A DNA stretch of 64,000 nt from Escherichia coli (GCF_041248615.1 NZ_CP158425.1), one strand, 5' to 3'; numbered from the stretch's first letter, positions 5,225 through 61,537 are shown. Made by a program: numbers and translations. The notes: generated from the letters alone by a model not told the origin.

Positions 5225-5580
5225 AATGCCCTCCTTTGTATGTGATTATTATACCTGCTTCCATTGCAGGCCAAACAGGTTCGGTGTATGAAAAATAGAC
5301 TTCTCTCCGGCGTATAGCAATCTACTTACTGATCTGTTTTCGTATCAAACTGTATGGCATAACCGAGGGGCGTACGTGGTGAGTCAGAAAGTTACTTTTC
5401 CGTAATAGTTAATTTCAGATCCTTCTTCCAGTTACGCTTCAGTATAAAACCGATACCCTCTAATTCAGCATCCTTCACGTTTAATACGCTTCACTTTAAG
5501 GCAGGGCTTTTCGGTTGATATGAATTCTTTTTCCGGTTGCTGGACATGGGTTTCATCCTGATAGTTAAAATTGCAGGCTA

Positions 5581-5883
5581 TCAGTCACCACCACCACCTC
5601 CTCCTCCTCCTCCTCCACCGCCACCATCACAACCACCAGCTATGCTATTTTCACCATTACAATCACCTCCGAGGGGGTTCAAATGGCTGCTCCCCTGTAG
5701 ATGGTGTCCTTGCCAGATCGAACCCGAACCAGCGCCTCCTGAGCGTCTTTGCTTGCCCTGAGGCAATTGTGCAGGCTCACCAGCACCGGCGGTCCCAAAA
5801 ATGTCCCGGGCAATTTTATAAAGAAGGTAAAAAGGTACGCCCAGCATCATAAAAAAGATTACTGAAAATATTACACGTTCCAT
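5581..5883 (-). CDS. small membrane protein with C-terminal poly-Gly tract
   Basis: 100-aa ORF, AGGAGA RBS, TM helix; Gly tract is encoded by a CCN/GGN triplet repeat. Confidence 0.45.
   Translation of the reverse strand: MERVIFSVIFFMMLGVPFYLLYKIARDIFGTAGAGEPAQLPQGKQRRSGGAGSGSIWQGHHLQGSSHLNPLGGDCNGENSIAGGCDGGGGGGGGGGGGGD
5583..5630. repeat. triplet microsatellite (CCA/CCT)n, about 14 units
   Basis: Uninterrupted CCN triplets visible in the sequence. Confidence 0.9.
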
Positions 5884-6315
5884 TGATGATCTCCTGTCTT
5901 GTGAGAGACCAGTTATATCAGGGTGATTCAGTATTTCCGTTTAGAAAAGAGTACTAATTTGGCCCTGTTCGATCTTAATTTGCCATCCGGGAAAAAGTCA
6001 TAGGGATAGGCCTGCCAGAGTCAATAACTTCCAGTGATCTGGAGGAGACCCCGGCTCTCTGAGCCCTCATGGATGGTACGGCTTTACCCCCTGTAAACAG
6101 ATTCACGTTCCGCAGGACAAACATCGACTACTGACGTCTCATATTTGCTGACGCTAATCCGACGTCTCATTGCCGTCTGCTTGTTTTCTTTAAAGGGTGT
6201 ATTAGACGAATATCAAATCGGAATGGTAGGGGATGTGTGGGCACCATGCCCGGCCCTCTTTGAGCATCTGAGAGATTGGAGACCTAGCCGGGTAAGATAG
6301 CTACTTTCTTACGGG

Positions 6316-6684
6316 TTACCCTTCAAATCCAAAGACGAAACGGACGCTGCCGTTCTCCACGTGGAGACGCTTTACTTCTTCGACAAATTCCTGGATCACC
6401 TCTCCGGCGTTATCGGGTGGTATGGCTGACAAAATTTCTTCCGAAGTCAGCCATGAGTATGAATGTTCACCGAATAAATCATCATCTTCGGACGGTATAT
6501 CATCAGGTAATCCGCGTAATGCGTGGATAAAAACTGCTGATGTGCTCGCCCTTTCACGATCTACATCAAATCCGAGCCAGGCAAAGTGGAGATATGATCG
6601 GTCCCCTTTATAATTGCTTGATAAATTAATCCATTTACCAGGCTTTTCTTCCCTTTGAAATCGCCAGCAGATATCAACGCCCAT
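6316..6684 (-). CDS. hypothetical protein
   Basis: 122-aa ORF in a minus-strand gene string. Confidence 0.4.
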   Translation of the reverse strand: MGVDICWRFQREEKPGKWINLSSNYKGDRSYLHFAWLGFDVDRERASTSAVFIHALRGLPDDIPSEDDDLFGEHSYSWLTSEEILSAIPPDNAGEVIQEFVEEVKRLHVENGSVRFVFGFEG

Positions 6685-6848
6685 TAAGAAACTCCATTAC
6701 TATCGTTCGTATGAGATAACTATCATTTCAGAATACTATGACTTCTTCCCGTATAGAACTAATCGCTCACGCCAACTGGGCGAAGCCAACCGGTTCCGCC
6801 ACTTCGCTCATTGGTTTTTAGGCGTAAGCACTGAAGCCAGTCTCCATG

Positions 6849-7391
6849 CTAACTGGCGAGCCTGCGAAAGTCAGACTCGTTGTTATAAAGCGGCATATCG
6901 TAAGCGGTGTCTGAAATGAACATGCGGATCTGCTCAAGCGTCATGCCACAATGAAAACGGTTTACGCTCACATTGGCCCGGGGGAAGTCAGCACAAAACG
7001 CATTCAAAACATTTTCATGGACAATGCCAATGTTGATCAACGCAGCTGGCCCGTTGTCACGGAAGGATACGACACGGAATCCCCCATACCAGCCTGAATG
7101 GGAGAAAAATGAAAATGCGCCGGATGCCAGACCATTAGACAGGTCATAGCGCAATTTCCCGCACAGAGACTGGCTGTCTTTGCTGTACACGCGATTAATG
7201 AAAATACCGGGACCAACTTCTACCGGCTGCTTGTTGCTTGCTAAACACGGAAAGCCCACCAGCGAAACCTCCCTTTCTCCTGACCAGTTTACCTGATACC
7301 CGGCAGTGAGAAAGTCCGTCAGTTCTACGCCAGAAAGAGCATTAATGGCCGCGATATCGGTAGTCAAAATATTTACGTTTTTCATATTCAT
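6849..7391 (-). CDS. hypothetical protein
   Basis: 180-aa ORF. Confidence 0.45.
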   Translation of the reverse strand: MNMKNVNILTTDIAAINALSGVELTDFLTAGYQVNWSGEREVSLVGFPCLASNKQPVEVGPGIFINRVYSKDSQSLCGKLRYDLSNGLASGAFSFFSHSGWYGGFRVVSFRDNGPAALINIGIVHENVLNAFCADFPRANVSVNRFHCGMTLEQIRMFISDTAYDMPLYNNESDFRRLAS

Positions 7392-7452
7392 CTCATCTTT
7401 ATTCTAAAGTGCGTTTTTTGTCTATCAGCCCGAGGATTGAAAATTTGAATAT

Positions 7453-8231: not shown

Positions 8232-8284
8232 AATACCTCCTGTTTAGAAGTATTATATGTAAACAGCCTCAGCGGCTAATAACC
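8232..8284 (-). promoter_or_regulatory. promoter with conserved GGTTATTAGC box, 17-bp spacer and TATAAT
   Basis: Minus strand reads GGTTATTAGCC-17nt-TATAAT-RBS-ATG. Confidence 0.5.
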
Positions 8285-9161: not shown

Positions 9162-10346
9162 TCATGACTGTCCCTTGTTCATCTTATCAGCATGCTTACG
9201 CAGGTACTCTTTCAGGTCAGCATGAGCGTTGATGATATCGTTCATTTCATCATTGGTCAGAACAAGCGTGTAAGTATCAGTACTGACAGATTCACCTTCT
9301 TTAAGCTTGGCTTCTTCAGCAATACGTTCAAAAATCGGGATCGCGGTGTCTGCAATGACGGTCACAGTCTTTTTGTTCAGAACGCTGGACATGGAAGGTG
9401 CTTTACCTGCCGGGTTCTGTTTAGGAGCGCTGTCCTTTGGAGCTGGAGCCGGTTCCTGTACCGGTGGCGTATCCAGCGTCTCCGTATTGCTTTCATCGTT
9501 CAGTTGATCCGGTACCGGGGTGTTATCGGTAGTATCATCTGCCGGTTGCTCAGCACCGATGTTTTCCGGAGTCTGCGGATCTGCCATGCGCTCTTCTACC
9601 TTGGCAGCTTTGACGAATTTCAGCGTGTTTTTCGTCGCCTTGCCATAGATGGAGATCGCTTTGTTGATGTTATCTACCGCATCCTCACCGCTGTACATAT
9701 ACTCGTCCAGTGCAACGTACATGCTCACCTGATCGCTCACAAGCATGGTCTGTAGTTCAGAAGGCAGGTCCAGTACGCGAACCATCTGGCGAAGATGCTG
9801 CTCTGATTTACCACGTTTTTTTGCCAGTTCCGCAAAGGTCTTAGGCTCTTCTTTATCTTCAACCAGACGCTTAATTGAAAGCGCTTCAGCTACGACAGAC
9901 AGCGCCAGGTTGGAGTTGCCGGTCAGGGTGAAGAGTTCTGCTTTTGAAGCGCTACCGCGAAACTCTTCGCAGCGAATACGAGTAATGCGTTCACGCCCTT
10001 CTGCTTCCAGCTGGCGGTTTGCAATAGCGATGGAACGGATACGGCAAGCCCCCTGACGCAGTACAGGTACGCCATTAACCATCTGAACAACGATAGGCGT
10101 CACGCTGAACGGGTCTTCCATGTAGGCATCGGCCAGGCTGTTCAGGTGTTCCACAACGTGAGGCATTGAATAGTAGAGCTCGCCCATACCGGCCGTGCGG
10201 GTGTTAAAGCCTTCCTGCTCTACAACAACCGAAGGGTCAATGATAAGGCCGTTGCCTTTACGGGCACCGTTACCAGTGCGTTCCAGGTAACCACGAAGGC
10301 TGATTTCGTTGCTGTTGTTTTTTACTTCAGTTTCGATTGCGGACAT
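9162..10346 (-). CDS. ParB N-terminal domain protein (ParB/Srx-like), paralog 1
   Basis: GFNTR and VNGVPVLRQGACR motifs shared with ORFs 58095..59258 and 62469..63524; no ParA partner. Confidence 0.6.
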   Translation of the reverse strand: MSAIETEVKNNSNEISLRGYLERTGNGARKGNGLIIDPSVVVEQEGFNTRTAGMGELYYSMPHVVEHLNSLADAYMEDPFSVTPIVVQMVNGVPVLRQGACRIRSIAIANRQLEAEGRERITRIRCEEFRGSASKAELFTLTGNSNLALSVVAEALSIKRLVEDKEEPKTFAELAKKRGKSEQHLRQMVRVLDLPSELQTMLVSDQVSMYVALDEYMYSGEDAVDNINKAISIYGKATKNTLKFVKAAKVEERMADPQTPENIGAEQPADDTTDNTPVPDQLNDESNTETLDTPPVQEPAPAPKDSAPKQNPAGKAPSMSSVLNKKTVTVIADTAIPIFERIAEEAKLKEGESVSTDTYTLVLTNDEMNDIINAHADLKEYLRKHADKMNKGQS

Positions 10347-10560
10347 TTTTGTTCTCTTTTTTGGTTGGTTGTTTAACTGCGCTACAACACAACAATACCA
10401 GGTTCGACATTTTTCCTAATAGGTTGCGGAGAAGAAAAAGTAACTTTTTTTAAAAATTTTCCTGAGGCAATACTACTCGATCCGTCCGTTTTAAATCTTC
10501 ACAACAGTGGGCCGTTTTTACGTTTAAGCAAAATAACTGGTTCAGAAGGTGACTCAGAGA

Positions 10561-10575
10561 GAAAAGTTACTTTTC
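10561..10575. promoter_or_regulatory. palindromic motif GAAAAGTTACTTTTC (candidate operator)
   Basis: One of at least 14 copies of AAAAGT(A/T)ACTTTT in intergenic DNA; a second copy at 10435-10451. Confidence 0.5.
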
Positions 10576-17415: not shown

Positions 17416-17594
17416 CGGTTGCCTTCCATTCAGGGAGAATTCTCAGTAATTACATCACACCTGAAGAGAAACTATTTTCGTATAAATGAGCATTTTCGAC
17501 ATATCAGAGGGGGGGTTTACTCATAAATGAGGTAGTAAGGGTCACACTTGAGGTGAAAGTTACTTTCCTGGCTGCGAACGAACTATCTCAAATG

Positions 17595-17888: not shown

Positions 17889-18178
17889 ACCTTCCCCTCC
17901 TTATATAAAACAATCCGCCAGCAGCTCGACTGGCGGACAATGTTTGACTGGCAACAGCAAGGACATACTATTTAGTGACAAGTTTGATCTTGGTTTCACT
18001 CATTCGAAGTCGAAACTCCTGAAAACCCTGCTCTACCGCTAACTCCAGCCACTCAACGGGAATGGTATAGCTACAATCAGACCCACCCAAAGCGGCATCA
18101 CAAGCGTAATCCCAGTCCTCATCCTGAACCGCCCCGGGAATCCTGGAGACTAAACTTCCTGAGAAAGAGGTAAACAGG

Positions 18179-18505
18179 ATGACTAAAAATACTCGTTTTT
18201 CCCCCGAAGTCCGTCAACGGGCAGTCCGTATGGTTCTGGAAAGTCAGAGCGAATATGACTCACAATGGGCGACAATTTGTTCCATTGCTCCAAAGATTGG
18301 CTGTACGCCGGAGACTCTGCGTGTCTGGGTTCGCCAGCATGAGCGGGATACCGGGGGCGGTGATGGAGGGCTCACCACCGCTGAACGTCAGCGTCTGAAA
18401 GAGCTGGAACGTGAAAATCGTGAACTGCGCCGCAGTAACGATATCCTTCGCCAGGCTTCCGCTTATTTTGCGAAGGCGGAGTTCGACCGCCTCTGGAAAA
18501 AATGA
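18179..18505 (+). CDS. IS3-family transposase OrfA
   Basis: 108-aa product recognised from memory as IS629/IS1203 OrfA. Confidence 0.9.
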
Positions 18506-19392
18506 TGCCACTGCTGGATAAGCTGCGTGAGCAGTACGGGGTCGGACCGCTATGCAGCGAACTGCATATTGCCCCGTCAACGTATTACCACTGTCAGCAA
18601 CAGCGACATCATCCGGATAAACGCAGTGCCCGTGCGCAGCGCGATGACTGGCTGAAGAAAGAGATACAGCGCGTATACGATGAAAATCACAAGGTATACG
18701 GTGTGCGTAAAGTCTGGCGTCAGTTGTTACGGGAAGGTATCAGAGTGGCCAGATGCACTGTGGCACGTCTCATGGCGGTTATGGGACTTGCCGGTGTTCT
18801 CCGGGGTAAAAAGGTCCGTACGACCATCAGCCGGAAAGCCGTTGCCGCAGGCGACCGCGTAAACCGTCAGTTCGTGGCAGAACGACCTGACCAGCTGTGG
18901 GTGGCTGATTTTACTTACGTCAGCACATGGCGGGGCTTCGTCTATGTGGCGTTCATCATTGATGTGTTTGCCGGATACATCGTGGGGTGGCGGGTCTCAT
19001 CGTCCATGGAAACGACATTCGTGCTGGATGCACTGGAGCAGGCGTTATGGGCCCGTCGACCGTCCGGCACGGTCCATCACAGTGATAAAGGTTCTCAGTA
19101 TGTATCGCTGGCCTACACACAGCGGCTTAAGGAAGCCGGATTACTGGCATCAACAGGAAGTACAGGCGACTCGTATGACAACGCGATGGCGGAGAGCATC
19201 AATGGTCTTTACAAAGCGGAGGTAATACACCGTAAGAGCTGGAAAAACCGTGCAGAAGTGGAACTGGCCACACTCACGTGGGTGGACTGGTATAACAATC
19301 GACGATTGCTGGAAAGGCTGGGCCATACTCCTCCGGCAGAAGCAGAAAAAGCTTATTATGCTTCCATCGGAAACGATGATCTGGCAGCCTGA
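18502..19392 (+). CDS. IS3-family transposase OrfB (integrase core)
   Basis: 296-aa product; -1 frame relative to orfA with a poly-A stretch at the junction. Confidence 0.9.
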
Positions 19393-19434
19393 GTTCACAG
19401 ATAAAACACTCTCCAGGAAACCCGGGGCGGTTCA

Positions 19435-20124: not shown

Positions 20125-20142
20125 AGTGGCTTACCCGGCTAA

Positions 20143-20198
20143 TAACCTGAGCAGAAAGTTTTCGCACTTTGTTTGAAAACAACTTTTCTGCTCAGGTT
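20143..20198. promoter_or_regulatory. inverted repeat (about 17-bp arms) overlapping the GGTTATTAGC promoter box
   Basis: AACCTGAGCAGAAAGTT ... AACTTTTCTGCTCAGGTT immediately upstream of the 19777..20124 promoter. Confidence 0.45.
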
Positions 20199-20603: not shown

Positions 20604-20924
20604 TTATGCTTCCTGACACCGTGTGAACGCAATCTTCGTCTGGATGCGTTCATAGATGGAAAACTGCCTTTCAATGGAACCGGCATTAGACAGTAATTCA
20701 TGAAGCTCAGCAGAGTCTGTATCGGGAACGATAGCTACAGAAACTCCATATCTCCGTCCAATTTTGATTAGGTGCGCAAGCTGTTCTTTTTCGGATTCTG
20801 TGAGCATTGCCAGATCTCTTCCGGACACCTGCTCTATAAACGAACCAAGGTTTTTGGGAAAAAAGGGTTCGGCATCAGAGTTATGTGCTGGGCGCGTCTG
20901 CGGCTTATCGAAGCTATTGGGCAT
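20604..20924 (-). CDS. hypothetical protein
   Basis: 106-aa ORF. Confidence 0.4.
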   Translation of the reverse strand: MPNSFDKPQTRPAHNSDAEPFFPKNLGSFIEQVSGRDLAMLTESEKEQLAHLIKIGRRYGVSVAIVPDTDSAELHELLSNAGSIERQFSIYERIQTKIAFTRCQEA

Positions 20925-21103
20925 GAATAGAACCTATACAGTTAGAGAACTGGAGAATGGATAAAGACTCTATGAAAATCAGTTGTGCTACACTCGAATG
21001 CTAATCAAGCTTTATGATGGCTTTAGTAGGGATGGCCGTCAACTTAAACCGATAAGAAGGGAGCCATTTATCGTTAAAGTAACTTTCCCGGATGATGCTC
21101 TTT

Positions 21104-40308: not shown

Positions 40309-40628
40309 GATGGTTTTCCTTTTATGCCCGGTGCCGCCGGGACGGTGGCATTAAATATACGCCATGTAAGTAAATTAATTTTTACCCATTTGATTGTCAA
40401 TACAAACAAAAAATAAACCATGTTTATTATTTTACCAGCGATGCTATTTTAAAGTCCGTCTAAAATAAAAAACCAAAAAGTTAAATTTGAAGCCATCCTT
40501 CCTAAATTCATTTCTTGCGCATATTAGCCCCTGCTTTAAGTATATAATTTTTGAAAAAGTTGTCTGGAGGTTATTAGCTCGTGCATCTGGATTGTTAATA
40601 TAAAGCCAACACAGAAAAGGAAAACAAA

Positions 40629-41410: not shown

Positions 41411-42235
41411 TTGTCCTGTTTAAGTAACCAACCCGCTGCCGCCAGGCGGGTAAATCCTCTTAATGGAGTTTTAATGCAAATCTCAACTGAAGTTCTGAAC
41501 GTCTTATCTCGCTGCCGTGCTGAAGGGAACTTTCTTTTCCTGGCCGACCAGCTCGACCGCAGCATTTATGTTAAGACAAACAAAGTGCTGGAAGCTGCCG
41601 GTGGCAAATGGAACCGAAAAGAGCAGGCACATATTTTTACGGCGGATGCAGCTGAGCGTATCGAGCAAATCATTCTGACAGGTTCGGTCGACATCCCACG
41701 TGATTTGTTCAATTTCTTCCCTACCCCTGAGAATTTAGTCACAGATATGGTTCTACGCGCTGAACCAGCTGCCGGGGAACGTGTTCTGGAGCCTGAGTTT
41801 GGTGATGGCCGCATTCTGAAAGCCTTAAAACTGGCGGCTCCGGATGCATTGATTACCGGGATCGAATTGAACGATGAGCGATTCCTTGCAGTGAAGAACG
41901 ATAGTGTCCTTAGCACAGGGGCCGAGCTGGTGCATACCGACTTTCTTGGGTACCAGCCCGATGAAACTTTTGATGTTATCGTTATGAATCCACCATTCCT
42001 TAAACGCTCTGACGTTAAACATGTCATGCATGCCATCGCAATGCTCGCTAAGCGAGGTCGCTTACAGGCCATTCTGTCAGCTGGGGTATTGTTCCGGGAA
42101 GACACACTGACAAAAGCGCTCAGGGAGCGAGTCAAACAACTTGGCGGACAAATTTCGCCTCTTCCGGATGATACATTTAGGGAGTCCGGAACAAAGGTCA
42201 AAACAGCCCGCCTTGAAATTGATCTTCGCCGCTAA
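41411..42235 (+). CDS. N6-adenine-type DNA methyltransferase (NPPF motif)
   Basis: LEPEFGDGRIL (motif I), ITGIEL, VIVMNPPF (motif IV); paralogous to the domain in 54842..55840. Confidence 0.55.
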   Translation: MSCLSNQPAAARRVNPLNGVLMQISTEVLNVLSRCRAEGNFLFLADQLDRSIYVKTNKVLEAAGGKWNRKEQAHIFTADAAERIEQIILTGSVDIPRDLFNFFPTPENLVTDMVLRAEPAAGERVLEPEFGDGRILKALKLAAPDALITGIELNDERFLAVKNDSVLSTGAELVHTDFLGYQPDETFDVIVMNPPFLKRSDVKHVMHAIAMLAKRGRLQAILSAGVLFREDTLTKALRERVKQLGGQISPLPDDTFRESGTKVKTARLEIDLRR

Positions 42236-46109: not shown

Positions 46110-46269
46110 CTACCCGGAGCCGACAGTAAAACTGACGGCTTCAATTTTACTGCCCTCCTCGACTCCGATCAGCCAGTACGTCTTCAGAGATTCGCAAGGA
46201 AGAACCGAAAGAAAAGTTACTTTAATCGTACGTTTCCAGCGATGCTTTCAAAAGACAATGCATACTCGT

Positions 46270-48187: not shown

Positions 48188-49276
48188 TTAGCTGGCGTTG
48201 CTGTTCTTTTTCTGGCTTCGAAGACTACGAATATAGCGCAGTTCTTCAGCGGTTAAATCATGGACGGTAAGAACATCATCGCCGTCAATCGGGTCAGCTG
48301 GTGGGCATAACTCACCTTCTAAAACAGAAGACCCTGAGTTCTCTTCTTCATCTTCAACCACTTCTAAAGGAGGCTGAGTATTGTTCAAATTCAGATCGGG
48401 ATCCCGCTTATGAATCTGGAAGTATACTTTTCCGTCTTTCTTAATTTCGGTGTACTTGAGGTATCCTATCGATGCCAACTCTTCAAGAGCCTTTCTCACG
48501 GTAGCATTCTGACTATTTGCTCGTGTTTTGAGGTTCAGACGATTTTTCAGCCGAGTAAGGGATATCGGTATAGGATTTGGCGGTAATGACTCTATGAACG
48601 TATAGAGAGCCTGGGCGCTTTCCTTCTTGGCCAACTCCTTAATTGCCTTCAGCTGCATCAAAACCTTATGATCGTATTGATAGAGCTCGAAAATCTTAGG
48701 ATCAACCTGAAGGACAACCTGATCTGATTCCGGGTCTAACAGGGCAGACTGTACCAGATGCGTTGTATAGACTTTGGACGAGTTATTACTGGTGAACGAC
48801 AAGGTAACGGATGCTAACCTGCGTAAGGAGGCGTCTATACGTTTTCTGGACGCTGTAGATGAGCGATAATTTTCAGGCGTACATAGCTTGAGGAATTCAG
48901 TGAATTTTAAGCTTATCGTGTCATTGTTAATCGGATGATTGGCATAGGTTCGAATGATGCCCATCCACGTCTTAAAATCTACTGACATATTAAGACGCTC
49001 ACCGACAATTGAAATATTGGTGAACCCCTCGCTCTCCATTAAAGAGAGCGTCTGTAACTCTTTCGTTGCGTCAAAGCCAACCGTTTTATATTCCCGATTT
49101 TGACGCCCCACACTCTTTGGTGATGGGACGAACAGCCCGAGCCGCATCAAAGCAATAGACTGCACCGTACGGTTGCTGTTAGGACGCAAAATGATGTCTT
49201 TACCTGATTCTTTCTCTCTAACAGAGAAAGCCCTGGTGACCAGGTCCTGCTGCTCAGTATCTTTCTCTTTAGTCAT
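48188..49276 (-). CDS. repA: replication initiator RepA, P1/RepFIB family
   Basis: TVQSIALMRLGLFVP, DFKTWMGII, LYQYDHKVL, ALYTFIESLP and IGYLKY match P1 RepA blocks recalled from memory; iterons on both sides. Confidence 0.85.
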   Translation of the reverse strand: MTKEKDTEQQDLVTRAFSVREKESGKDIILRPNSNRTVQSIALMRLGLFVPSPKSVGRQNREYKTVGFDATKELQTLSLMESEGFTNISIVGERLNMSVDFKTWMGIIRTYANHPINNDTISLKFTEFLKLCTPENYRSSTASRKRIDASLRRLASVTLSFTSNNSSKVYTTHLVQSALLDPESDQVVLQVDPKIFELYQYDHKVLMQLKAIKELAKKESAQALYTFIESLPPNPIPISLTRLKNRLNLKTRANSQNATVRKALEELASIGYLKYTEIKKDGKVYFQIHKRDPDLNLNNTQPPLEVVEDEEENSGSSVLEGELCPPADPIDGDDVLTVHDLTAEELRYIRSLRSQKKNSNAS

Positions 49277-50383: not shown

Positions 50384-52840
50384 TTATTTTAATTCTTCAA
50401 TGTTAATCATGAACTCAGATCTGCCAGTAAGGCCGGATACAGCAGGGAAAATAGGAAAGCTACGGCTGTCCCCGAGCCCCAAATCCAGTTGAAGCTCTTT
50501 GCTTTCACCTGGCATCGCAGAAACGCCATTTACAGTCACGCCGAATGCAGCGTCCTTACGGACAGTAAGCACTGCGTCCTGAAGCCCTGTAGCGATTGAA
50601 CCATCCTTTTTACGCAGCTGGCTGGCATACAGAACAGCCAGAGCAGTATTGTCAGATGTTTTGAGAGAAGCATTGACAGCTAAGGTTTTCAGATTCTCTA
50701 GCCTGACGAGATTGTTTGGAAGGTAGTTAAATTCGACTGAGCTTTCTTTAACGTTGTTCATCTCATCTTTGGCCTGAACTGTGAGAGTGTATGTTTCGCC
50801 TTCATTAAGAGACGGAAAGATCTTGGGATAATTAGGTGCATACAGGTTGTTTCCCAGATTCACCCAAGACAATTCCACCGCATCAGAAACAGGGCCACCG
50901 CGAAGAGTCATACGGCTTAAGGATGGTTTAGTTAGAGCATCGGTGAGCTGTATACGGACGTTCTCCAGCCCATATACTGTTACGTTTTTGCTGATCGGTT
51001 TTCCTTCGTAGCTAATACTTACAGATGGTGCTGTATTATCAACGACAACTGTTTGATAAGGGAGGTTACCGGTATTGTTGAATGTATCTTGGGCATTAAT
51101 CACCACGTTATAACTGCCTTCTGGTACCTCTTTCATGTTGAACTCATACGTGTAGTTCCCAGACGCCATATTTCTACCTGTTTGTTTGCCGGTTACGCTT
51201 ATTTCTGCGTTGTTACGGTTTTTATCTGACAACCAAACTCGATTTACATAAACATGGTCGAAATATGAACCATCTCCAGGTTGATTCACGTAAACCTGGA
51301 GAATGTTGGTGGTTTCATTGTAATCAAATCCAGTGACGGAGGGACCCAGTGTATGCCAGGCTATATTCTCCCATATAGGGGCAAAGAAGGTTGCTTCGGT
51401 GGTTGACCTTACTTCATAGCCACTATGAAGATAACCGGTAGTGCCATTTATAATATCCTGGGGCAAAGAGACGGTACAGGTTGTTGAGCCAGCTGGAATA
51501 CTGCATGTTGCTCCGCCAGTGATTTTTTGATCATATGGCCTGGCCTGTACATTGAATCGGATATTAGTAAGTTTTATAGGCATATCAGATGCCTTGAACA
51601 GGTTCCAGTTTACGCTGTTGAACCATGTTCCATCAGCCTTTTGTCGTTCTATGGGTGAACTTCCCCAAGCCGGACTCTTTACAGAGGCAGGATCCCAGTT
51701 GAGCCAGCTGGCATACTGACCAAGATCTCCTCCAGACCATTGATATGTATTCACAGGTCTATAGTAGTTTCCATCTAAGGCACCCTGTGGCAGCTTAACT
51801 TCCACGTAGACATAGGTGGCATCTTCGGAAAGGACCTGTACTCCGCCATAGTTATTGGTAATGCTCATGCCACCATTTCGATATGGCTTCCAGTTAGTTC
51901 TTGGGATACGTATAACCAACTTGTAGGGGTTTTCCAGCACTGTAAGGCCTCGTTTAAACGGGACGTATCCCGAAGAAATGCCGGGTACAACACTGGTGCT
52001 TACACGTGAGTCATGAACTGCAAATGGCGTAAATTCTCCCATTTGATCGTCATATAAAAACCGCTGGGGAGGAATGTTAAGCGTATTTCCTGCCAGGTCC
52101 GTAACGATGAAATTGAAGGTGAATTCTTCATCAAGATCACTTGAGGGCATGCCAGCCTGGGTGTTCATATCTTTAATCCACGGATAGAACGCACGTTTAT
52201 TGGCTGTGTCATAACTCAGGTTATTGTCGGAGACCACAGAACCATTACTTCGTTTAATGACAAGACGGATCTTGTCAATTCCACTAGCATCCTCAATACC
52301 GTCTGCAAATATAGAAAACTGGCCACTACCGCCTCGGCCCAACTCCCAAAGTGGCCCAGAAAGTACCATGTCGTAACCTGCGTTTTGACTCGGATAAATA
52401 CTCTTATAGCGTGGAGGAGTTGTATCAACGATGAAATGATAAGTAGATGTGCTCACTACAGTCTGGCGAATATCCAGAGTTTCATTGACTACAGTAAAGG
52501 TCCCTTCTCCGAGCGCCGGTAGAACCATATCCTTTCCATAGTATTCTGTTCCATCGGCAGCAACGATACGATCTGCAACGCTCGTTTTGGTCGAGACGGA
52601 GGAATACATAACCTTTTTATCGCTGTCTCGTGTGACCGTCACTCGCTCGTACCGATCAAGACCCGATATCAAGTTCAGAGTCAAAACACCAGCGGGATTA
52701 AGATATGTTTGTGTTGCAGGTTTGATATTCCGAACAGCCTTATTGGTATCTGTAAATGAGTAGCTAAATACCTGAGCATGTGCCGAAGATACAGTAGCAA
52801 GGGCAGTTGCAACCATGCAGCCAATTAGAGTTTTACGCAT
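50384..52840 (-). CDS. large secreted protein, paralog C of the about 800-aa family
   Basis: Signal peptide ending AHA; C-terminal LTVRKDAAFG block. Confidence 0.6.
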   Translation of the reverse strand: MRKTLIGCMVATALATVSSAHAQVFSYSFTDTNKAVRNIKPATQTYLNPAGVLTLNLISGLDRYERVTVTRDSDKKVMYSSVSTKTSVADRIVAADGTEYYGKDMVLPALGEGTFTVVNETLDIRQTVVSTSTYHFIVDTTPPRYKSIYPSQNAGYDMVLSGPLWELGRGGSGQFSIFADGIEDASGIDKIRLVIKRSNGSVVSDNNLSYDTANKRAFYPWIKDMNTQAGMPSSDLDEEFTFNFIVTDLAGNTLNIPPQRFLYDDQMGEFTPFAVHDSRVSTSVVPGISSGYVPFKRGLTVLENPYKLVIRIPRTNWKPYRNGGMSITNNYGGVQVLSEDATYVYVEVKLPQGALDGNYYRPVNTYQWSGGDLGQYASWLNWDPASVKSPAWGSSPIERQKADGTWFNSVNWNLFKASDMPIKLTNIRFNVQARPYDQKITGGATCSIPAGSTTCTVSLPQDIINGTTGYLHSGYEVRSTTEATFFAPIWENIAWHTLGPSVTGFDYNETTNILQVYVNQPGDGSYFDHVYVNRVWLSDKNRNNAEISVTGKQTGRNMASGNYTYEFNMKEVPEGSYNVVINAQDTFNNTGNLPYQTVVVDNTAPSVSISYEGKPISKNVTVYGLENVRIQLTDALTKPSLSRMTLRGGPVSDAVELSWVNLGNNLYAPNYPKIFPSLNEGETYTLTVQAKDEMNNVKESSVEFNYLPNNLVRLENLKTLAVNASLKTSDNTALAVLYASQLRKKDGSIATGLQDAVLTVRKDAAFGVTVNGVSAMPGESKELQLDLGLGDSRSFPIFPAVSGLTGRSEFMINIEELK

Positions 52841-53060
52841 ATGATGCTCCGGGAATAGGTTATAGCCTTATTCTACGGATTCAGCCTACAAGGTCCGGTC
52901 GGATAAAGTGATAATTTGCCTGTTAAAAGAGACATCAAGTGAGAAAGCAACCAACGTACAGAATGCAAAATGGCGGCAGTGCATCTGGATGACGCAAAAG
53001 TAACTTTTTGTATCCACTTTTTTGGATTTTAGCCTTCAAAATGAGTATTCAACCAATCAT

Positions 53061-53074
53061 AAAAGTAACTTTTG
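53061..53074. promoter_or_regulatory. palindromic motif AAAAGTAACTTTTG (candidate operator), second copy at 52996-53009
   Basis: Two copies 150-230 bp upstream of the secreted-protein gene start. Confidence 0.5.
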
Positions 53075-53212: not shown

Positions 53213-53839
53213 ATGTTATACATGCTCTTATGCTGTTTTCTGATGCTCAACAGTACATTCGTTATGTTCAGAGCAATGTCTGCAATAAGTAAAGGATCCG
53301 CTAAAGAAAACCGGTCTGAAATATCGCTGATAGTCCTAGCAACACTTGGAATCGCATCACCATTCATTGTCGCAATGATTACTATTAATGAAAGTATGAC
53401 ATCTAAAACAGTAACAGATTTTTCTTTGGGTGCTCAGTGGTACGGAATGGTTTCAGCGGTAGCGCTAATGGGGTTATATGCTCGACGCGTTTGGAAAGAG
53501 AAGAAGTCCTTATTTACTGGCGCTTTCCTGGCCTCTTCCTTAATGGCCTTTATTTTTACTGACAGCCTTGTTTTCGTATCCCAGAAGGACACCGGCGTTC
53601 TGGCTACTTTCGTACTCGATAAAAACGCTGGAGATATTGATTGTAGTCGCCCGGCTATGATTGTCCATTACAGTAAAGGTGTTCCAACGGACTGGCGTTG
53701 CCCAACCAGTATCATGTTGATGGCGTATTCTTCATATCCTTTTTTACCCTGGCCTGAGTATAGCCATGGTACCAGCCAGTCTCTTACGGTTGTTATTGAT
53801 ACATTTATGGAAAACGCTGTTAATCTCAGCCAAAAATAA
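53213..53839 (+). CDS. integral membrane protein
   Basis: 208-aa ORF with several TM segments. Confidence 0.5.
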   Translation: MLYMLLCCFLMLNSTFVMFRAMSAISKGSAKENRSEISLIVLATLGIASPFIVAMITINESMTSKTVTDFSLGAQWYGMVSAVALMGLYARRVWKEKKSLFTGAFLASSLMAFIFTDSLVFVSQKDTGVLATFVLDKNAGDIDCSRPAMIVHYSKGVPTDWRCPTSIMLMAYSSYPFLPWPEYSHGTSQSLTVVIDTFMENAVNLSQK

Positions 53840-54841: not shown

Positions 54842-55909
54842 TCATAGGACTTCCTCTTGTTGAATACGTTCGGCGTACAGGATGCGAACCGAAACGGTCG
54901 TGTTTTCAAACTCGTTCTCAAAAACGTCCATCCATTCCGTCCGGAATTCTTCCCCCAAAAGGTTATCGAGCCCCTGAAGAGATAATGGAAGAACGGCTGC
55001 TAGAGATCCCCCGGCTGCGAGATGAGATGCAGCTGCCTGGAGATGCCGCCTGGCCCGGTTATCGGCAAAAGGTGGGTTCATCACGACATAATCAAACTTC
55101 TTCTGTTGATTAGACTTAGACCATGTGAGGAAGTCAGCTTCTGTCGTATCGTATCCCTTAGCCCGGGAGATAAGGCAATTCAAAGTATCAAGCTCGATGC
55201 CAGTAACGATCACACCGGCAGGGAATGATTTAAGCAAATCCGCATGGCCAATATTAGGCTCCAGGAGGGTATCCCCTTCCCCTGCACCAAGCAGGGAAGA
55301 TACATATTCGCTGATTCGGCAAGATGAAGGGTAAAACTGATGCGATACAATATCAGGCATCTCCCCTATCTGGCCGATGTAACGAATAACCTCACACGGA
55401 TCATAGGAAAATGTCACATCGTATTTTGTTACTGTTGCCCCTAAGAACCGAAGGGTGTCAGCGGCAACACTCGAAGATTTGCGTTCGGCGAGAGACCCTA
55501 AAGATGTCCAGCAACTCCATTTATTGTCCCCGTCATTTTTAAACATCAGTTCAGAAAGCTGCATCCGGGTATCAAAGTCGATGCACTGCTTAAGTACAGG
55601 GAATGCCTCCAAAGATTTCTTGCTATGAGCCATACGGTCGGCAGGTAATGCCAGCGGTACGATAGCTGATAAAATATTGTTAAGCCGCTCGGCGATATCA
55701 GGGTGGACGTCAATATGCATTGATCCATTTTTGTAAACCCTGAAACGAATACTGTTGCCATCGATGCAGATCCATTTTCTGAACCCCTCATGTTCGACCA
55801 ACGCCTCAACCAATGATTTGGTGTTATGGATCGCCTTCACCTGTTCGCCACGGAAGAATGCGCATATAACGCGGAGCTCGCTCAGCGGTGAAATGCCAGA
55901 CTCTTTAAA
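54842..55909 (-). pseudogene. C-terminal methyltransferase domain of a gene split by IS629 copy 2
   Basis: EPNIGHADLL, TGIELD and VVMNPPF motifs; no ATG start (track start is GTG); frame open upstream to the IS boundary. Confidence 0.55.
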
Positions 55910-55967
55910 ATCCTGAACCGCCCCGGGAATCCTGGAGACTAAACTTCCTGAGAAAGAGGTAAACAGG

Positions 55968-56294
55968 ATGACTAAAAATACTCGTTTTTCCCCCGAAGTC
56001 CGTCAACGGGCAGTCCGTATGGTTCTGGAAAGTCAGGATGAATATGACTCACAGTGGGCGGCAATTTGTTCCATTGCCCCAAAGATTGGCTGTACGCCGG
56101 AGACTCTGCGTGTCTGGGTTCGCCAGCATGAGCGGGATACCGGGGGCGGTGATGGTGGGCTCACCAGCGCTGAACGTCAGCGTCTGAAAGAGCTGGAACG
56201 TGAAAATCGTGAACTGCGCCGCAGTAACGATATCCTTCGCCAGGCTTCCGCTTATTTTGCGAAGGCGGAGTTCGACCGCCTCTGGAAAAAATGA
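55968..56294 (+). CDS. IS3-family transposase OrfA
   Basis: 108 aa, nearly identical to 18179..18505. Confidence 0.9.
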
Positions 56295-57181
56295 TGCCAC
56301 TGCTGGATAAGCTGCGTGAGCAGTACGGGGTCGGACCGGTATGCAGCGAACTGCATATTGCCCCGTCAACGTATTACCATTGTCAGCAACAGCGACATCA
56401 TCCGGATAAACGCAGTGCCCGTGCGCAGCACGATGACTGGCTGAAGAGAGAGATACAGCGCGTATACGATGAAAATCATCAGGTGTACGGTGTGCGTAAA
56501 GTCTGGCGTCAGTTGTTACGGGAAGGAATCAGGGTGGCCAGATGTACAGTGGCGCGCCTCATGGCGGTTATGGGACTTGCCGGTGTTCTCCGGGGTAAAA
56601 AGGTCCGTACGACCATCAGCCGGAAAGCCGTTGCCGCAGGCGACCGCGTAAACCGTCAGTTCGTGGCAGAACGACCTGACCAGCTGTGGGTGGCTGATTT
56701 TACTTACGTCAGCACATGGCGGGGCTTCGTCTATGTGGCGTTCATCATTGATGTGTTTGCCGGATACATCGTGGGGTGGCGGGTCTCATCGTCCATGGAA
56801 ACGACATTCGTGCTGGATGCACTGGAGCAGGCGTTATGGGCCCGTCGACCGTCCGGCACGGTCCATCACAGTGATAAAGGTTCTCAGTATGTATCGCTGG
56901 CCTACACACAGCGGCTTAAGGAAGCCGGATTACTGGCATCAACAGGAAGTACAGGCGACTCGTATGACAACGCGATGGCGGAGAGCATCAATGGTCTTTA
57001 CAAAGCGGAGGTAATACACCGTAAGAGCTGGAAAAACCGTGCAGAAGTGGAACTGGCCACACTCACGTGGGTGGACTGGTATAACAATCGACGATTGCTG
57101 GAAAGGCTGGGCCATACTCCTCCGGCAGAAGCAGAAAAAGCTTATTATGCTTCCATCGGAAACGATGATCTGGCAGCCTGA
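56291..57181 (+). CDS. IS3-family transposase OrfB
   Basis: 296 aa, nearly identical to 18502..19392. Confidence 0.9.
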
Positions 57182-57223
57182 GTTCACAGATAAAACACTC
57201 TCCAGGAAACCCGGGGCGGTTCA

Positions 57224-57847
57224 ATCCACCCTTAATTTCTGCCAGGGGTATTTAGACGGCTCGCAAACTCCGGTAGTGATCATGCGGGTGGAGAACCCAA
57301 AAGCTTTGTTTGTCTTGTGACTGCGGCTCAGAGACTGGAAGACGTCGTAAACCCTTTCTTTAATAAATTGATTGCGGTCATTAAGCAAAGCAACGACTGT
57401 GCCCACTACAGCGTCAGCTGTGAAATCAGGGATCACCTGAGGCGGCATAATATAACGGTCGGCCGTAAACTGCTTATCCCATTCGTTACGTTTGGCATCC
57501 GACATGATAGGCAAAACATCAGTGAGTGCCATAACGCGTTTCCAGTATTCTGATCTCAGAGCGTTTTCTGCGAACAAGGCATCCGCTTCTGAGATGCTGT
57601 GGTTGTAGCCTGAGAGATAAGAATAAAGTTTCTGGTGATTGTGGGTTTTGAACTGGACAGCCATGAGTTTCAACAAGCAGAGTTCATCATTATAGGACTC
57701 AACAAGATCCGCGATAATGCCGAGCTCTTTGCGCATATCTGGAAGAAATGTTTCAGGAGAGCTAACCACCAGGCTATGAGAGGTTGTTAAAGCCAGTACG
57801 CTGTGACCTGCATTATCGGGTTTAGCTTCAGAATCAAGAGATGACAT
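57224..57847 (-). pseudogene. N-terminal part of the gene split by IS629 copy 2
   Basis: ORF 57221..57847 takes its stop codon from the IS terminus. Confidence 0.5.
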
Positions 57848-58094: not shown

Positions 58095-59258
58095 TTATTC
58101 TGCGTCCGGCTGTGGGTCAGTATCCTGATCGGTCTCTTCCCCTGCCTTCTTAGCATTTTTTTTACGTGGGTATTTTGGCTTCTCACCATTAAGTTTTGCC
58201 TGACGATTCTCCGCACGGCGAAGCTGCTTGTTCTCTGATTCTGTGATCTCTTTTGAAAGATTTCTCAACATCTCCAGAGTACTGCGGTTCAACGTAATGT
58301 TGATTTCTTCGTCAGCACTTGAATCTGTCAGCTCCGGCAATTCAATATCCCCCAGTTTCTGTAATAAGCTGGTGGTGATGAGTTTGACGCCTTCTACGGC
58401 TTTTGTGGCAATAACCGGCGGAATCCGTGCTGGCTTGAAGTCTGAAGGTCTGACTCGTACCTGACCATGTTGGGTTTTTTTCACCGTGATGCCATTCGCA
58501 TCGGCCTGCTCAAGTTCTGCGATCATCTTCTTGATACGTGAAATTGCTTCTGTTTCGCCGAGCTCATCGATCAGTGAAAGCACGTTAACATACGAAATAG
58601 CGTCAGCATGAATCCATTTCTTGATAACAACAGAACAGGTTGTCAGGCGGATAAGAGAACTGATGGTCGTCGGGCTTTTATTTTCACGTTGAGCAATTCG
58701 TTCGAGTGACCAGCCAGCAAGAGAATGTAGGCGACGATAGGACTCGCCAAGCGCAACAGGAGAAAGCGCAAGACCACGGTTACCATCAATGGTCGCGAGC
58801 TCACAGCCAATTTCATCTTCTTTAATCTCAACGCAAAGGATTGTGATGTCATGATCTTCATCACATGCCATCATTGCGGCTTTTAAACGGCAGTGCCCCT
58901 GGCGAACAAAAGGTACCCCATCAATGACACGTACTCGGATAGGGTCTACATAGTCACCTCGAATGTAGGCATTCTTGATGTTGTAGATGTGTTCTTCAAC
59001 CTCAGGGAGCTTATAGTAATCGTCACCCATTCCCATTTCGCGGGAGTTGAAGCCTGGCGTGACCTGAATTACTGAAGGGTGGATAGCCCATGCTTTCTGG
59101 TCACTTACTTCAGTACAAAGTTCAGGGTTTGCATCACGGAACTGTTTAAGCCCAGTGACGTAACGGCCTGTGCCAGTAACTACTGAAAAGGCAACATGGG
59201 CCGTTTTAAAGACCTTGTCATTAGCTTGCTGTGTAGGTTCTGTCAGTAAAACACTCAT
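58095..59258 (-). CDS. ParB N-terminal domain protein, paralog 2
   Basis: GFNSR and IDGVPFVRQGHCR motifs; upstream of the IS-split methyltransferase gene. Confidence 0.6.
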   Translation of the reverse strand: MSVLLTEPTQQANDKVFKTAHVAFSVVTGTGRYVTGLKQFRDANPELCTEVSDQKAWAIHPSVIQVTPGFNSREMGMGDDYYKLPEVEEHIYNIKNAYIRGDYVDPIRVRVIDGVPFVRQGHCRLKAAMMACDEDHDITILCVEIKEDEIGCELATIDGNRGLALSPVALGESYRRLHSLAGWSLERIAQRENKSPTTISSLIRLTTCSVVIKKWIHADAISYVNVLSLIDELGETEAISRIKKMIAELEQADANGITVKKTQHGQVRVRPSDFKPARIPPVIATKAVEGVKLITTSLLQKLGDIELPELTDSSADEEINITLNRSTLEMLRNLSKEITESENKQLRRAENRQAKLNGEKPKYPRKKNAKKAGEETDQDTDPQPDAE

Positions 59259-59606
59259 AGGGGCTCCGTTACATTTTTCTGCTTACTTTCTGCGTAGCGG
59301 GGATACTACCGAAAAAAAAATTCATAATTTTTCGCAAAAAAGGTACTTTTTGAGCCTATTCTGATTTTTTACAAAAAAAGGTGGCTCCCCATTACTTGTG
59401 ATGGCATAAAAATCGCTTCATAAACAAATACATAAATCCAAAACATAAAGTTCAGGTATAAGTGAGGAAAAATCTTATAAATCCGAAATGCTGAAAGTCA
59501 AAACTGTGCGTCTTAAACAACTTTTTTTTGCTCCCTAAGTTATTAGTTAAAGCCCGTGGTTAGGTACGATACCAGCACCTAAATTTCTCTCTCAGGTATA
59601 GACACT

Positions 59607-60440
59607 TTGACTCGACATCTCAGACACATGCCGATAATCAAATGGGCTGGTGGAAAAACGAAACTGATGCCTTTCATCAGCCATCACTACCCACACGATC
59701 ATAGTTGCCGGTGGGTAGAACCCTTTATAGGCGGTGGTGCCGTTTTTCTGAACATGTTTGCACAAAATGCATTGCTTGCAGATAGCAATCCAGACTTGAT
59801 CAACCTATACAGGACTATTCAAAGACAGAAAACTAACTTTATAAATCAGGTCCAAAACTTGGCGGATAAAACCTTTGTCGAAAAGGACTACTATGAGATG
59901 AGGGACCGTTTCAACAAAACCTGTATTTCTGGTCAATCGCTTCAAAGAGCGGCTTTGTTTTACTCCCTGAATCGCCTGGGCTATAACGGTATGTGCCGCT
60001 ATAACTCAGAAAGAATCTATTCAGTGCCGTGGGGGAAACATACAGAACTGAAGCTTGACCTCAATAAAATAGACTACCTTTCATTTCGTCTTTCAGGTAT
60101 TGAACTGATCACCGCTGGTTTTGAGGAGACTCTGGCCGCAACCGGTGAAGGAGATCAGATTTACTGTGATCCGCCATATGACAAAACAAGCAAAACTAGT
60201 TTTGTCAGTTACGATGGTAAACCGTTCAGCCAAAGCGACCACGTGCTGTTAGCAAATATGCTCGTTGACGCTCACAGAAAAGGCGCTGCTGTTGCGATAT
60301 CAAATAGCCTGACATCATTCACTTTGGGCCTCTATGAAGAGCGTGGATTCGTCATACACAGACTCAGCGCTTACCGATCCGTAGGAAGTAAGCCGAATAC
60401 ACGGAAAACGGAAACAGAAATACTGGCCGTGCTGAAATAG
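59607..60440 (+). CDS. Dam-like (D12 class) N6-adenine DNA methyltransferase
   Basis: IKWAGGK and DPPY motifs. Confidence 0.8.
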   Translation: MTRHLRHMPIIKWAGGKTKLMPFISHHYPHDHSCRWVEPFIGGGAVFLNMFAQNALLADSNPDLINLYRTIQRQKTNFINQVQNLADKTFVEKDYYEMRDRFNKTCISGQSLQRAALFYSLNRLGYNGMCRYNSERIYSVPWGKHTELKLDLNKIDYLSFRLSGIELITAGFEETLAATGEGDQIYCDPPYDKTSKTSFVSYDGKPFSQSDHVLLANMLVDAHRKGAAVAISNSLTSFTLGLYEERGFVIHRLSAYRSVGSKPNTRKTETEILAVLK

Positions 60441-60448
60441 AGTAAATT

Positions 60449-61116
60449 CTAATCAACTAGGCTAATCCATTCCTCAAAAGTTAATACCTCAGGGTAAGTT
60501 CGTTGAACATAAGGTATAAACTGAAGCTCTTCTATTCTCCGGTCGCCCCTCTTTCCTTCGCAAATAAATGAAATGAGTCCTTGCTGAGAAAGGCCAGTAA
60601 GGACGCTCATAAGTCTTATATTTAGACTTTTAAGCTGTAAGTCGTTATTAATGTCCTCCACTTTATGAGAGCTCTGGCCTGAACGTTTAAGATACTCGTA
60701 AACCATGAAATTCGAATTTCGTCGTTTTAACAATTTTTCGGTTATGCATTCCTGAATGAAGTCGCCAAGAGCATCTAAAAGCGGACTGAGAACTACCGGG
60801 AAAGTTAATGTGTAACTTTGAGAAGTTTTAGACAAAGTGAATGAGTTTAGAAAGCTAAAGTTTAGTCTCTTTTTTGAATATGGAACATAAGCGACAAGAG
60901 TAGTCGACATAACAGTAAGTAAAGCTTCAAGATGGTTCACTGTTATTAAAGTGGTTTTATCTGTATTTCTAAGATTATGGAAATCAATAAACGCTACTCT
61001 TGAACGGCTAAGCCAATCTTGTACTTTAATGTCGATAGAAAATTGCGAGATATGATTTGAACATTCATTTTGGGTGATAGGGCATGCAGACGAAAGATGG
61101 TTATGGATTATCATGC
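60449..61116 (-). CDS. hypothetical protein convergent with the Dam-like gene
   Basis: AT-rich ORF; start set at the internal Met because the longer track ORF runs through the upstream palindromic motif at 61201. Confidence 0.35.
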
Positions 61117-61537
61117 ATAGCACAAAAAAAGGAAAACGGCAGGCTGTGGGGCATTGAAAACCGGTTAAAGAAAGCTTAGACGTTTCATATGCGCTTACCG
61201 GAAAAGTAACTTTTCTTAACGTTGGCTTTGACGATGTTCTTGCATTTTTACAAATGAAACCGAGACCCAGATCATTGTGCATTTTAAAGTCCATCTCCAT
61301 CATCACCTTTTAGCCTTAACTGTATGGTATTGGTATACAAAAAATTAAAATTATAATTAATAAGATTATCATTTTTTTACAATAGAAAAGGTTCTGATAG
61401 AGGGGAATTTAAATGTAAAAGATTTATACTCGCAGATCTTTATGAGGGATAAAACCCATTGCGTAAGCAACAATATTACGTGAGTGAGTCCTAACGACAG
61501 TTAAAGTCTTGGCTCTATATTTAAGCAGCAAAAACAT

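Follow-up and report, generated by a model that had tools for sequence, protein, structure and literature searches.

In the IncP plasmids RK2 and RP4, KorB is a ParB-family helix-turn-helix (HTH) protein whose operator, OB, is a 13-bp palindrome of 6-1-6 layout. The sequence of OB is TTTAGCSGCTAAA. RK2 carries 12 copies of the 13-bp palindrome (PMC10954446). Here, we analyze a palindrome, AAAGTWACTTT, that recurs along the backbone of IncHI plasmids, starting from a 64,000-nt stretch of DNA from Escherichia coli (GCF_041248615.1, NZ_CP158425.1; hereafter, the window), which also encodes three orphan ParB-like proteins of 394, 387 and 351 aa. An earlier note, made from this sequence alone, had proposed the palindrome as a candidate operator of an element-wide regulon, bound either by ribbon-helix-helix (RHH) paralogs or, by analogy with KorB, by the ParB-like proteins.

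IncHI plasmids spread mcr-1, extended-spectrum β-lactamase and carbapenemase genes and are the carriers of multidrug resistance in typhoid strains. What is known of how they are regulated concerns mainly H-NS/Hha and the HtdA/TrhR/TrhY circuit. Besides KorB, three described systems bear comparison. Noc of Bacillus subtilis is a chromosomal, ParA-less ParB paralog with many scattered palindromes on one replicon, and it needs a membrane-targeting N-terminal helix. VirB of the Shigella virulence plasmid is a plasmid-encoded, ParA-less ParB-like protein whose inverted-repeat site (virS) lies upstream of promoters on an H-NS-silenced, temperature-regulated plasmid. The IncC/IncA plasmids are, like IncHI, large plasmids with the same MOBH relaxase and MPF_F typing; in IncC, a KorB-domain ParB binds 14 scattered 22-bp inverted repeats, 10 of them intergenic and four in open reading frames (ORFs), as determined by electrophoretic mobility-shift assay (Kiss et al. 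2024, PMC10954446), and some of these parS sites adjoin regulated promoters (PMC10954446).

A palindrome common to IncHI plasmids

The window belongs to the backbone of an IncHI2 plasmid. A 24-kb segment of it (20000-44000) is ~100% identical to the backbone of many IncHI2 plasmids from Enterobacter, E. coli and Salmonella. When mapped onto the annotated reference pEGY1-MCR-1 (NZ_CP023143.1, an IncHI2 plasmid of 228,947 bp), almost all of the window aligned at no less than 99.99%; a search of a phage collection gave no match. Some 60 genes, most of them uncharacterised and all but a few on the minus strand, lie between the end of traD, where the window starts, and the RepB gene next to RepHI2.

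Every one of the 14 sites listed in the earlier note does hold a copy of the palindrome, and two copies had been missed, one in traD (485-497) and one in a gene for an Ig-like protein (43988-44000; Table 1). Their number is beyond chance, as had been supposed: the 13-mer pattern AAAAGTWACTTTT has eight exact matches in the window, and 14 when one mismatch is allowed, compared to 0.00 and 0.20 expected from 100 shuffles (largest shuffle for the latter, two). The perfect 11-mer AAAGTWACTTT occurs 15 times, to which the variant AAAAGGTACTTTT (59338) can be added. Two of the 15, at 17555 and 21075, deviate from the 13-mer at both of its outer positions.

In a logo built from 88 sites of two plasmids, the IncHI2 plasmid and the IncHI1 plasmid R27, AAAGTWACTTT was invariant, while positions ±6 were A/T in 68% and positions ±7 were G/C in ~45%. 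The result is a symmetric 15-mer consensus, gAAAAGTWACTTTTc, with flanks that are unrelated between sites, as expected of a dimer site; as a duplex, the consensus palindrome reads GAAAAGTWACTTTTC and its G-variant is AAAAGGTACTTTT. Two subclasses that had been distinguished by their ends, TTYCYGG and TTTTGATAG, came down, in this logo, to chance and a weak symmetric preference.

On the whole IncHI2 plasmid (229 kb), AAAGTWACTTT is present in 44 copies vs. 0.18 expected from base composition, and all 44 occurrences of the shorter AAGTWACTT have the flanking A and T. It is the most over-represented 10-13-mer both there and on R27 (42 copies), and the sole palindrome family enriched on both plasmids, with no copy in the resistance region of the IncHI2 plasmid (197-228 kb). 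It is likewise enriched on an IncHI3-type Klebsiella pneumoniae plasmid (15 in 41 kb) and on contigs of K. grimontii (8 in 21 kb) and Yersinia intermedia (7 in 21 kb), and the motif is also enriched on a Leclercia-like plasmid; on these four, it is unchanged even though their ParB-like orthologs are only 35-50% identical. The motif is, thus, real, very strongly non-random, plasmid-wide and common to the IncHI family, so that the element-wide scope suggested earlier stands, at a scale that had been underestimated. No prior description of the IncHI motif was found in the searchable literature, with older subscription papers outside our reach; the literal sequence led to unrelated papers only, and the R27 transcriptome paper makes no mention of it.

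Conservation and position of the sites

To compare IncHI1 with IncHI2, we aligned ±150 bp around the IncHI2 sites to R27; flank identity was 65-84%, the two plasmids being ~70% identical. The 11-mer was perfectly kept in 22 of 24 alignable sites (chance p ~1e-32). Among alignable sites inside genes, 14 of 16 were perfectly conserved and the other two were one-base variants. Within these intragenic copies, 45 of 48 third-codon positions were conserved, compared to 444 of 1016 in the flanking codons (94% vs. 44%; Fisher p=7e-13), and the DNA of the palindrome is therefore itself under purifying selection, including inside genes. The conserved intragenic copies point to more than simple promoter operators; by analogy, their retention, which a simple promoter operator would not account for, argues for site networks of the ParB/KorB/Noc type, which would.

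The earlier note had confined the palindrome to intergenic DNA, and this did not hold: three of the 15 window 11-mers (485, 43988 and 61202) and 18 of the 44 copies on the plasmid are intragenic. The densities are nevertheless unequal, with 26 of 44 sites falling in the 20% of the sequence that has no annotated coding sequence (p=2e-8). The distance between an intergenic copy and the start codon that it precedes is 80-230 bp. As for the placement of nearly all window copies upstream of operons, about 10 of the 15 do lie 90-230 bp before a start codon, but the one at 46212 follows the 3′ end of a gene. Where a promoter could tentatively be placed by eye, e.g., from TATAAT elements that precede the ATGs at 5224 and 32897 by ~30 bp, another ~100-130 bp separate it from the palindrome upstream; the copy at 33067-33079, for example, is ~115 bp upstream of a promoter-like module made of GGTTATTAG and TATAAT. 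The copy at 10436-10448 ends 12 bp upstream of an element at the −35 position, ACCTATTAGG. Of the 89 intergenic regions of the backbone that measure 100 bp or more, 21 contain the motif (10 of 40 in the part covered by the window), which therefore marks some transcription units and not others. Elsewhere on the plasmid, it is found in the oriT/trhR region and in front of trhF, htdT and parM.

Candidate binding proteins

The three ParB-like proteins named in the earlier note are indeed encoded in the window. They are 26-32% identical pairwise (32% between the 387-aa and 394-aa proteins), and all match phrog_1033, "ParB-like partition protein," with matches to TIGR00180 below the cut-off. Since they carry the Pfam domain HTH_ParB (PF17762), the only one that Pfam detects in them, the view that the window lacks a helix-turn-helix regulator had to be dropped. 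So did the RHH candidates: a Pfam scan of 54 small window proteins at E≤0.1 found neither an RHH nor a small HTH family. When 20 small proteins encoded nearby were scanned against PHROG and NCBIfam, they gave no hit or matched families of unknown function, apart from one weak anti-termination-Q-like match, and among the window proteins tested, the ParB-like paralogs are the only DNA-binding families recognised by Pfam, NCBIfam and PHROG. Their genes are neighboured by small proteins without recognisable domains, by methyltransferases or by RepB. A profile search of a collection of genome contigs with the ParB-like alignment returned one locus.

The AlphaFold2 model of the 394-aa protein has a predicted local distance difference test score >90 for most of residues 21-240. 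In it, a ParB N-terminal fold and the HTH_ParB domain are followed by a disordered linker of acidic/proline character (256-321) and, at the C-terminus, by a helical domain. Its top PDB match in Foldseek was RK2 KorB (8qa9; E 4.6e-8, TM 0.66 [target]), followed by ParB and Noc. On this model, the 394-aa protein is predicted to have the ParB/KorB fold.

We then considered how the sites relate to the genes of the individual paralogs. The two perfect sites that precede the 394-aa gene (Table 1) have counterparts upstream of its orthologs: two in R27, two in Yersinia, one plus a variant on the Leclercia-like plasmid, and five to six within 900 bp directly upstream on the IncHI3-type and K. grimontii plasmids. 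Other IncHI3 site clusters exist, e.g., five near the traL operon, and clustering alone therefore does not single out the 394-aa protein. Upstream of the 387-aa gene, the variant AAAAGGTACTTTT is found at 80 bp in both IncHI2 and R27 (L007 45095-45107), and the IncHI3 ortholog has a consensus copy 118 bp upstream; this variant may be a deliberately weakened autoregulatory site or a paralog-specific one. The 394-aa and 387-aa genes, then, both have the motif or its variant in their own upstream regions in IncHI1, IncHI2 and IncHI3. We set the 351-aa paralog aside as a binder: its gene has no upstream motif and no clear ortholog on IncHI3-type plasmids, which keep the motif, and its R27 ortholog, R0037, is barely expressed. 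Site clustering, presence in IncHI3 and conservation of the recognition helix do not separate the other two, and the candidate binder is the 394-aa protein, which we favour, or the 387-aa protein.

The ParB of the Par1 partition system is also an unlikely binder. It is of P1 type (PF08775), and directly upstream of parA lies a tandem array of 11-18 repeats containing AACCCCCTTAATC (pEGY1 103894-106848; R27 25653-27722), which probably represents the centromere or incompatibility repeats of this P1-type system; no palindrome occurs at 98.5-110.4 kb of pEGY1 (parAB, 107.3-109.6 kb) or near parAB of R27.

Published R27 arrays contain both candidates. The 387-aa ortholog is R0042, located between the Dam methylase and DUF4942 genes, with 6132 units at 25 °C, 2278 at 37 °C and 20561 in an htdA mutant (PMC7366339). 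From its position three genes after flmA, we infer that R0104 is the 394-aa ortholog; it gave 2196 and 2155 units at 25 and 37 °C, while R0106-R0109 beside it were "not expressed" (PMC7366339). Strong constitutive expression of both ParB-like genes beside silent neighbours fits autoregulated, global DNA-binding proteins, and these steady-state data lean towards repression.

Other features of the window

A second conserved intergenic module consists of an A/T tract (e.g., TTTTTTCTGAAAATTT), GGTTATTAG(CC) at the −35 position, ~16 nt and a TATAAT-like hexamer, and is situated 30-60 bp before start codons. GGTTATTAG occurs seven times in the window vs. 0.39 expected, and seven times in R27; GGTTATTAGCC is a quasi-palindrome, GGYTA-T-TARCC. 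This module may represent either a distinct class of promoter or an operator recognised by a second regulatory protein. A related element is also found in the promoter of the 394-aa gene, just downstream of the palindrome.

Between 4500 and 40300, nearly all genes are on the minus strand, with a content typical of plasmid establishment/anti-defence regions: the orphan methyltransferase genes and the DndC-like gene of Table 1, hok, DUF957/DUF3085, HNH and RelE/HigB-like genes. Three genes encode Ig-like proteins, which may be related to the IncHI RSP surface protein family; a palindrome lies upstream of two of these genes, inside one and just downstream of one. The window also has two copies of a 1.3-kb insertion sequence, which we take to be IS3-family-like, and the second of these splits a DUF4942 gene (54842-55840 and 57221-57847). 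The segment 46872-47695 matches the reference twice at 80.7% identity with an offset of ~80 bp, which implies tandem repeats of ~80 bp next to repHI2 (48188-49276), presumably iterons.

Table 1. Palindrome copies and other features of the window
Feature	Position	Strand	Context
Palindrome copy AAAAGTTACTTTG	485-497		Inside traD 3′ end, 60 bp upstream of next gene; conserved at orthologous R27 position
Palindrome copy GAAAGTTACTTTT	5387-5399		Intergenic, ~165 bp upstream of − strand gene 4940-5224; one mismatch
Perfect palindrome	10436-10448		90 bp upstream of ParB-like gene 9162-10346; orthologous R27 site conserved
Perfect palindrome	10562-10574		216 bp upstream of ParB-like gene 9162-10346
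Palindrome copy GAAAGTTACTTTC	17555-17567		Intergenic; perfect 11-mer
Palindrome copy TAAAGTAACTTTC	21075-21087		~150 bp upstream of − strand gene 20604-20924; perfect 11-mer
Palindrome copy TAAAGTTACTTTT	23806-23818		~130 bp upstream of − strand gene 23435-23674; one mismatch
Perfect palindrome	28855-28867		~205 bp upstream of − strand gene 28323-28649
Perfect palindrome	33067-33079		~170 bp upstream of − strand gene 32520-32897
Perfect palindrome	38271-38283		~108 bp upstream of Ig-like protein gene 35746-38163 (−)
Palindrome copy AAAAGTAACTTTG	43988-44000		Inside Ig-like gene 43689-46109, 300 nt from start; conserved at orthologous R27 position
Palindrome copy AAAAGTTACTTTA	46212-46224		103 bp downstream of Ig-like gene 43689-46109, unannotated stretch beside repHI2; one mismatch
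Perfect palindromes (two)	52996-53008, 53061-53073		Same divergent region, between Ig-like gene 50384-52840 (−) and 53213-53839 (+)
Variant AAAAGGTACTTTT	59338-59350		80 bp upstream of ParB-like gene 58095-59258; one mismatch
Perfect palindrome	61202-61214		Inside annotated ORF 60449-61306 (−), 90 nt from start; conserved in R27
Orphan ParB/KorB-like protein, 394 aa	9162-10346	−	Leading candidate binder; phrog_1033 1.6e-21, TIGR00180 partial, PF17762
Orphan ParB-like paralog, 387 aa	58095-59258	−	Second candidate binder; phrog_1033 3.3e-28, TIGR00180, PF17762
Orphan ParB-like paralog, 351 aa	62469-63524	−	Unlikely binder; phrog_1033 1.9e-25
GGTTATTAG module copies	8276-8284, 20139-20147, 27841-27849, 32946-32954, 35366-35374	−	
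GGTTATTAG module copy	40569-40577	+	
GGTTATTAG module copy	26620-26628		Inside gene
1.3-kb insertion sequence (two copies)	18125-19431, 55914-57222		108-aa and 296-aa ORFs; both absent from reference IncHI2 plasmid
Orphan DNA methyltransferases (three)	29492-30742, 41474-42235, 59667-60440		
DndC-like PAPS reductase, 794 aa	23924-26308		
Ig-like protein, ~800 aa	35746-38163	−	
Ig-like protein, ~800 aa	43689-46109	+	
Ig-like protein, ~800 aa	50384-52840	−	

Discussion

Among the described systems, KorB with its OB operators offers the closest mechanistic model. Site density is ~1 per 5 kb in RK2 and in IncHI alike, the sites lie both near to and far from promoters, and a long disordered linker followed by a C-terminal domain is also predicted for the 394-aa protein. 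The differences are that this protein is only 19% identical to KorB in the structural alignment, that IncHI has three paralogs, and that there are ~44 IncHI sites vs. 12 in RK2, many of the former being conserved inside genes. In plasmid terms, IncC is the nearest relative, but its network is unlike that of IncHI in its binder: this is the partition ParB encoded by parAB053, an operon with a site in the parA promoter, whereas IncHI parAB is without the palindrome and the candidates are ParA-less orphans. The sites differ as well: a 40-kb IncC locus (L018, pNDM102337) has seven copies of the IncC core TTTCACATGTGAAA and none of AAAGTNACTTT, and among the repeated palindromes recovered from the IncHI plasmids, the IncC core did not turn up. 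The L018 palindrome, ACTTTCACATGTGAAAGT, at 290, 3874, 4333, 9648, 12984, 24028 and 27443, corresponds to the published ParB-bound parS sites, and its outer arms (ACTTT/AAAGT) resemble the IncHI half-sites in the opposite arrangement. Noc is among the top fold matches, but its division-site control is not applicable to a plasmid, and neither the 394-aa nor the 387-aa protein has an evident membrane-targeting N-terminal helix. VirB, which is absent among the fold matches of the 394-aa model, is a relative of P1-type ParB and has a different site sequence.

Of what the earlier note proposed, a dimer-type operator used element-wide and bound by a ParB-like protein, on the KorB/IncP analogy, is the best-supported reading. 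In the form that we favour, and to which we give about an even chance of being right, the palindromes would be specific loading sites, in double-stranded DNA, of a dimeric, plasmid-encoded HTH protein of the ParB/KorB type, likely the 394-aa or the 387-aa protein, forming a ~44-site network across IncHI-type plasmids. The protein would bind each palindrome as a dimer and control its own promoter through sites 80-220 bp upstream of its start codon. From sites ~60-170 bp upstream of a subset of backbone promoters, together with the conserved intragenic sites, it would modulate transcription at a distance, perhaps spreading or sliding in the manner of KorB. We favour repression as the sign of this effect: the many "establishment" and surface-protein operons would be kept quiet once the plasmid has settled, and a new recipient, where the protein is missing, would see them expressed in a burst. 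The motif, its statistics, its conservation across the family, the selection on its intragenic copies and the ParB/KorB fold of the candidate are shown by the data, and the identity of the binder, its nucleotide dependence and the direction of regulation are what we infer here.

Several points weigh against this explanation. Only about a quarter of the backbone intergenic regions have a site, and since a consensus sigma-70 scan was uninformative, giving promoter-like hits no more frequent than in shuffles and no reliable promoter positions, the geometry between sites and promoters is approximate. Pfam did not detect the N-terminal ParB domain in the ParB-like proteins. The GERRxR nucleotide box reads R-Q-G-A-C-R-I-R in the 394-aa protein, and G-H-C-R and G-H-T-R in its paralogs, with the last arginine kept and the glutamate and first arginine lost; CTP-dependent clamping is therefore uncertain, as judged from sequence, because the box is G-A/H-C/T-R in all three. 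Unlike korB, none of the ParB-like genes has an adjoining incC/ParA or KorA-like partner. While the motif does not vary between IncHI2 and IncHI3, the recognition helix of the orthologs is conserved only to a moderate degree. Co-occurrence does not distinguish the ParB-like proteins from other conserved products of the backbone. The suggested direction of regulation draws on analogy and on steady-state array data alone.

A more far-reaching version, which we regard as possible but doubtful, is that of a ParA-independent "plasmid chromatin," in which one or two orphan ParB-fold proteins, out of the three paralogs with their non-canonical nucleotide box, would load at the ~44 selected sites, intragenic ones included, and control the whole backbone at a distance. 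In one form, this would shut down the operons for establishment, surface proteins and transfer once the plasmid has entered; in the other, it would counteract H-NS/Hha and so bring about the temperature-dependent transfer that defines the IncHI group.

The best-surviving alternative keeps both the sites and the ParB-like binder and makes the latter an anti-silencer of the VirB type (or an activator of the BisD type) that would relieve H-NS/Hha silencing of the AT-rich backbone and contribute to temperature-dependent expression. The sites, ~80-220 bp upstream of start codons and off the core promoters, resemble VirB sites, which lie upstream of VirB-dependent promoters (PMC10770331); IncHI plasmids encode H-NS and Hha; H-NS represses R27 conjugation at 37 °C (PMC7366339); and R0042, along with its neighbours, is up 2.7-fold at 25 °C and 3.4-fold in the htdA mutant (PMC7366339). 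We nevertheless consider an anti-silencer unlikely, given that the genes beside the strongly expressed R0104 are silent in steady state, where repression fits better than activation, and that the best structural match, KorB, is a repressor.

Somewhat less probable, in our estimate, is a binder that is not ParB-like: a host factor, or another conserved product of the IncHI backbone whose fold is unknown (e.g., TrhR/TrhY, HtdA or a small protein that has escaped annotation). No domain can be recognised in most backbone proteins, the candidates are indistinguishable by co-occurrence, and sites are present in the oriT/trhR region and upstream of trhF and htdT. Yet the 6-1-6 palindrome and its scattered, multicopy layout match systems of the ParB/KorB/Noc type, the ParB-like genes have sites in their own promoters across IncHI1, IncHI2 and IncHI3, and the motif is absent from acquired DNA on the plasmid. 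To our knowledge, it also matches no consensus of an E. coli regulator.

It is still more doubtful that the palindromes are primarily scattered parS centromere sites for segregation or compaction, as in IncC, with any transcriptional effect secondary. The IncC parS sites, intergenic and intragenic, are ParB-bound and act in partition and incompatibility (PMC10954446); the conserved intragenic copies of IncHI would suit such a role, as would the R27 sites being spaced somewhat more evenly than random (coefficient of variation 0.73, P=0.019). Set against this, IncHI plasmids already have two partition modules, ParAB and ParMR, of which parAB has its own tandem repeat array, a P1-type ParB and no palindrome nearby, so that the Par1 centromere was rejected as an identity for the motif, and the candidate ParB-like genes have no adjacent ParA.

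That the motif is no protein site at all is very improbable: a restriction/modification target, suggested by GTWAC in the core and by the several methyltransferases of the plasmid, does not agree with GTWAC alone being at its expected frequency (426 observed vs. 476 expected), an RNA or single-stranded DNA hairpin or Rho-independent terminator is weak and no better than shuffles (minimum free energy −0.4 to −3.5 kcal/mol, z-scores −0.13 to +1.48), a mobile miniature repeat does not agree with the unrelated flanks, and a by-product of a recurrent peptide, for which 11 of 18 intragenic copies read in the frame AAA-GTW-ACT-TT would speak, is, like the others, at odds with conservation over 11-15 bp and with most copies being intergenic.

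The proposed IncHI site network would be kin to the known ParB/KorB site systems. It is readily testable, with three candidate proteins and one short DNA site. SGI1 naturally titrates IncC plasmids with mimic parS sites; the invariant 15-mer could be used in the same way, as a titration target by which IncHI plasmids are destabilised or deregulated, and could also mark the whole family. If the "plasmid chromatin" version were right, it would be a third independently evolved case of ParB-based global control, after KorB and VirB, with the largest known plasmid site network. A ParB-like binder would extend the recently revived concept of the ParB-CTPase/KorB "sliding clamp regulator" to a clinically important plasmid family. 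It would also mean that IncHI backbones are under a previously unrecognised layer of control, acting through a site that is unchanged across IncHI1, IncHI2, IncHI3 and related plasmids.

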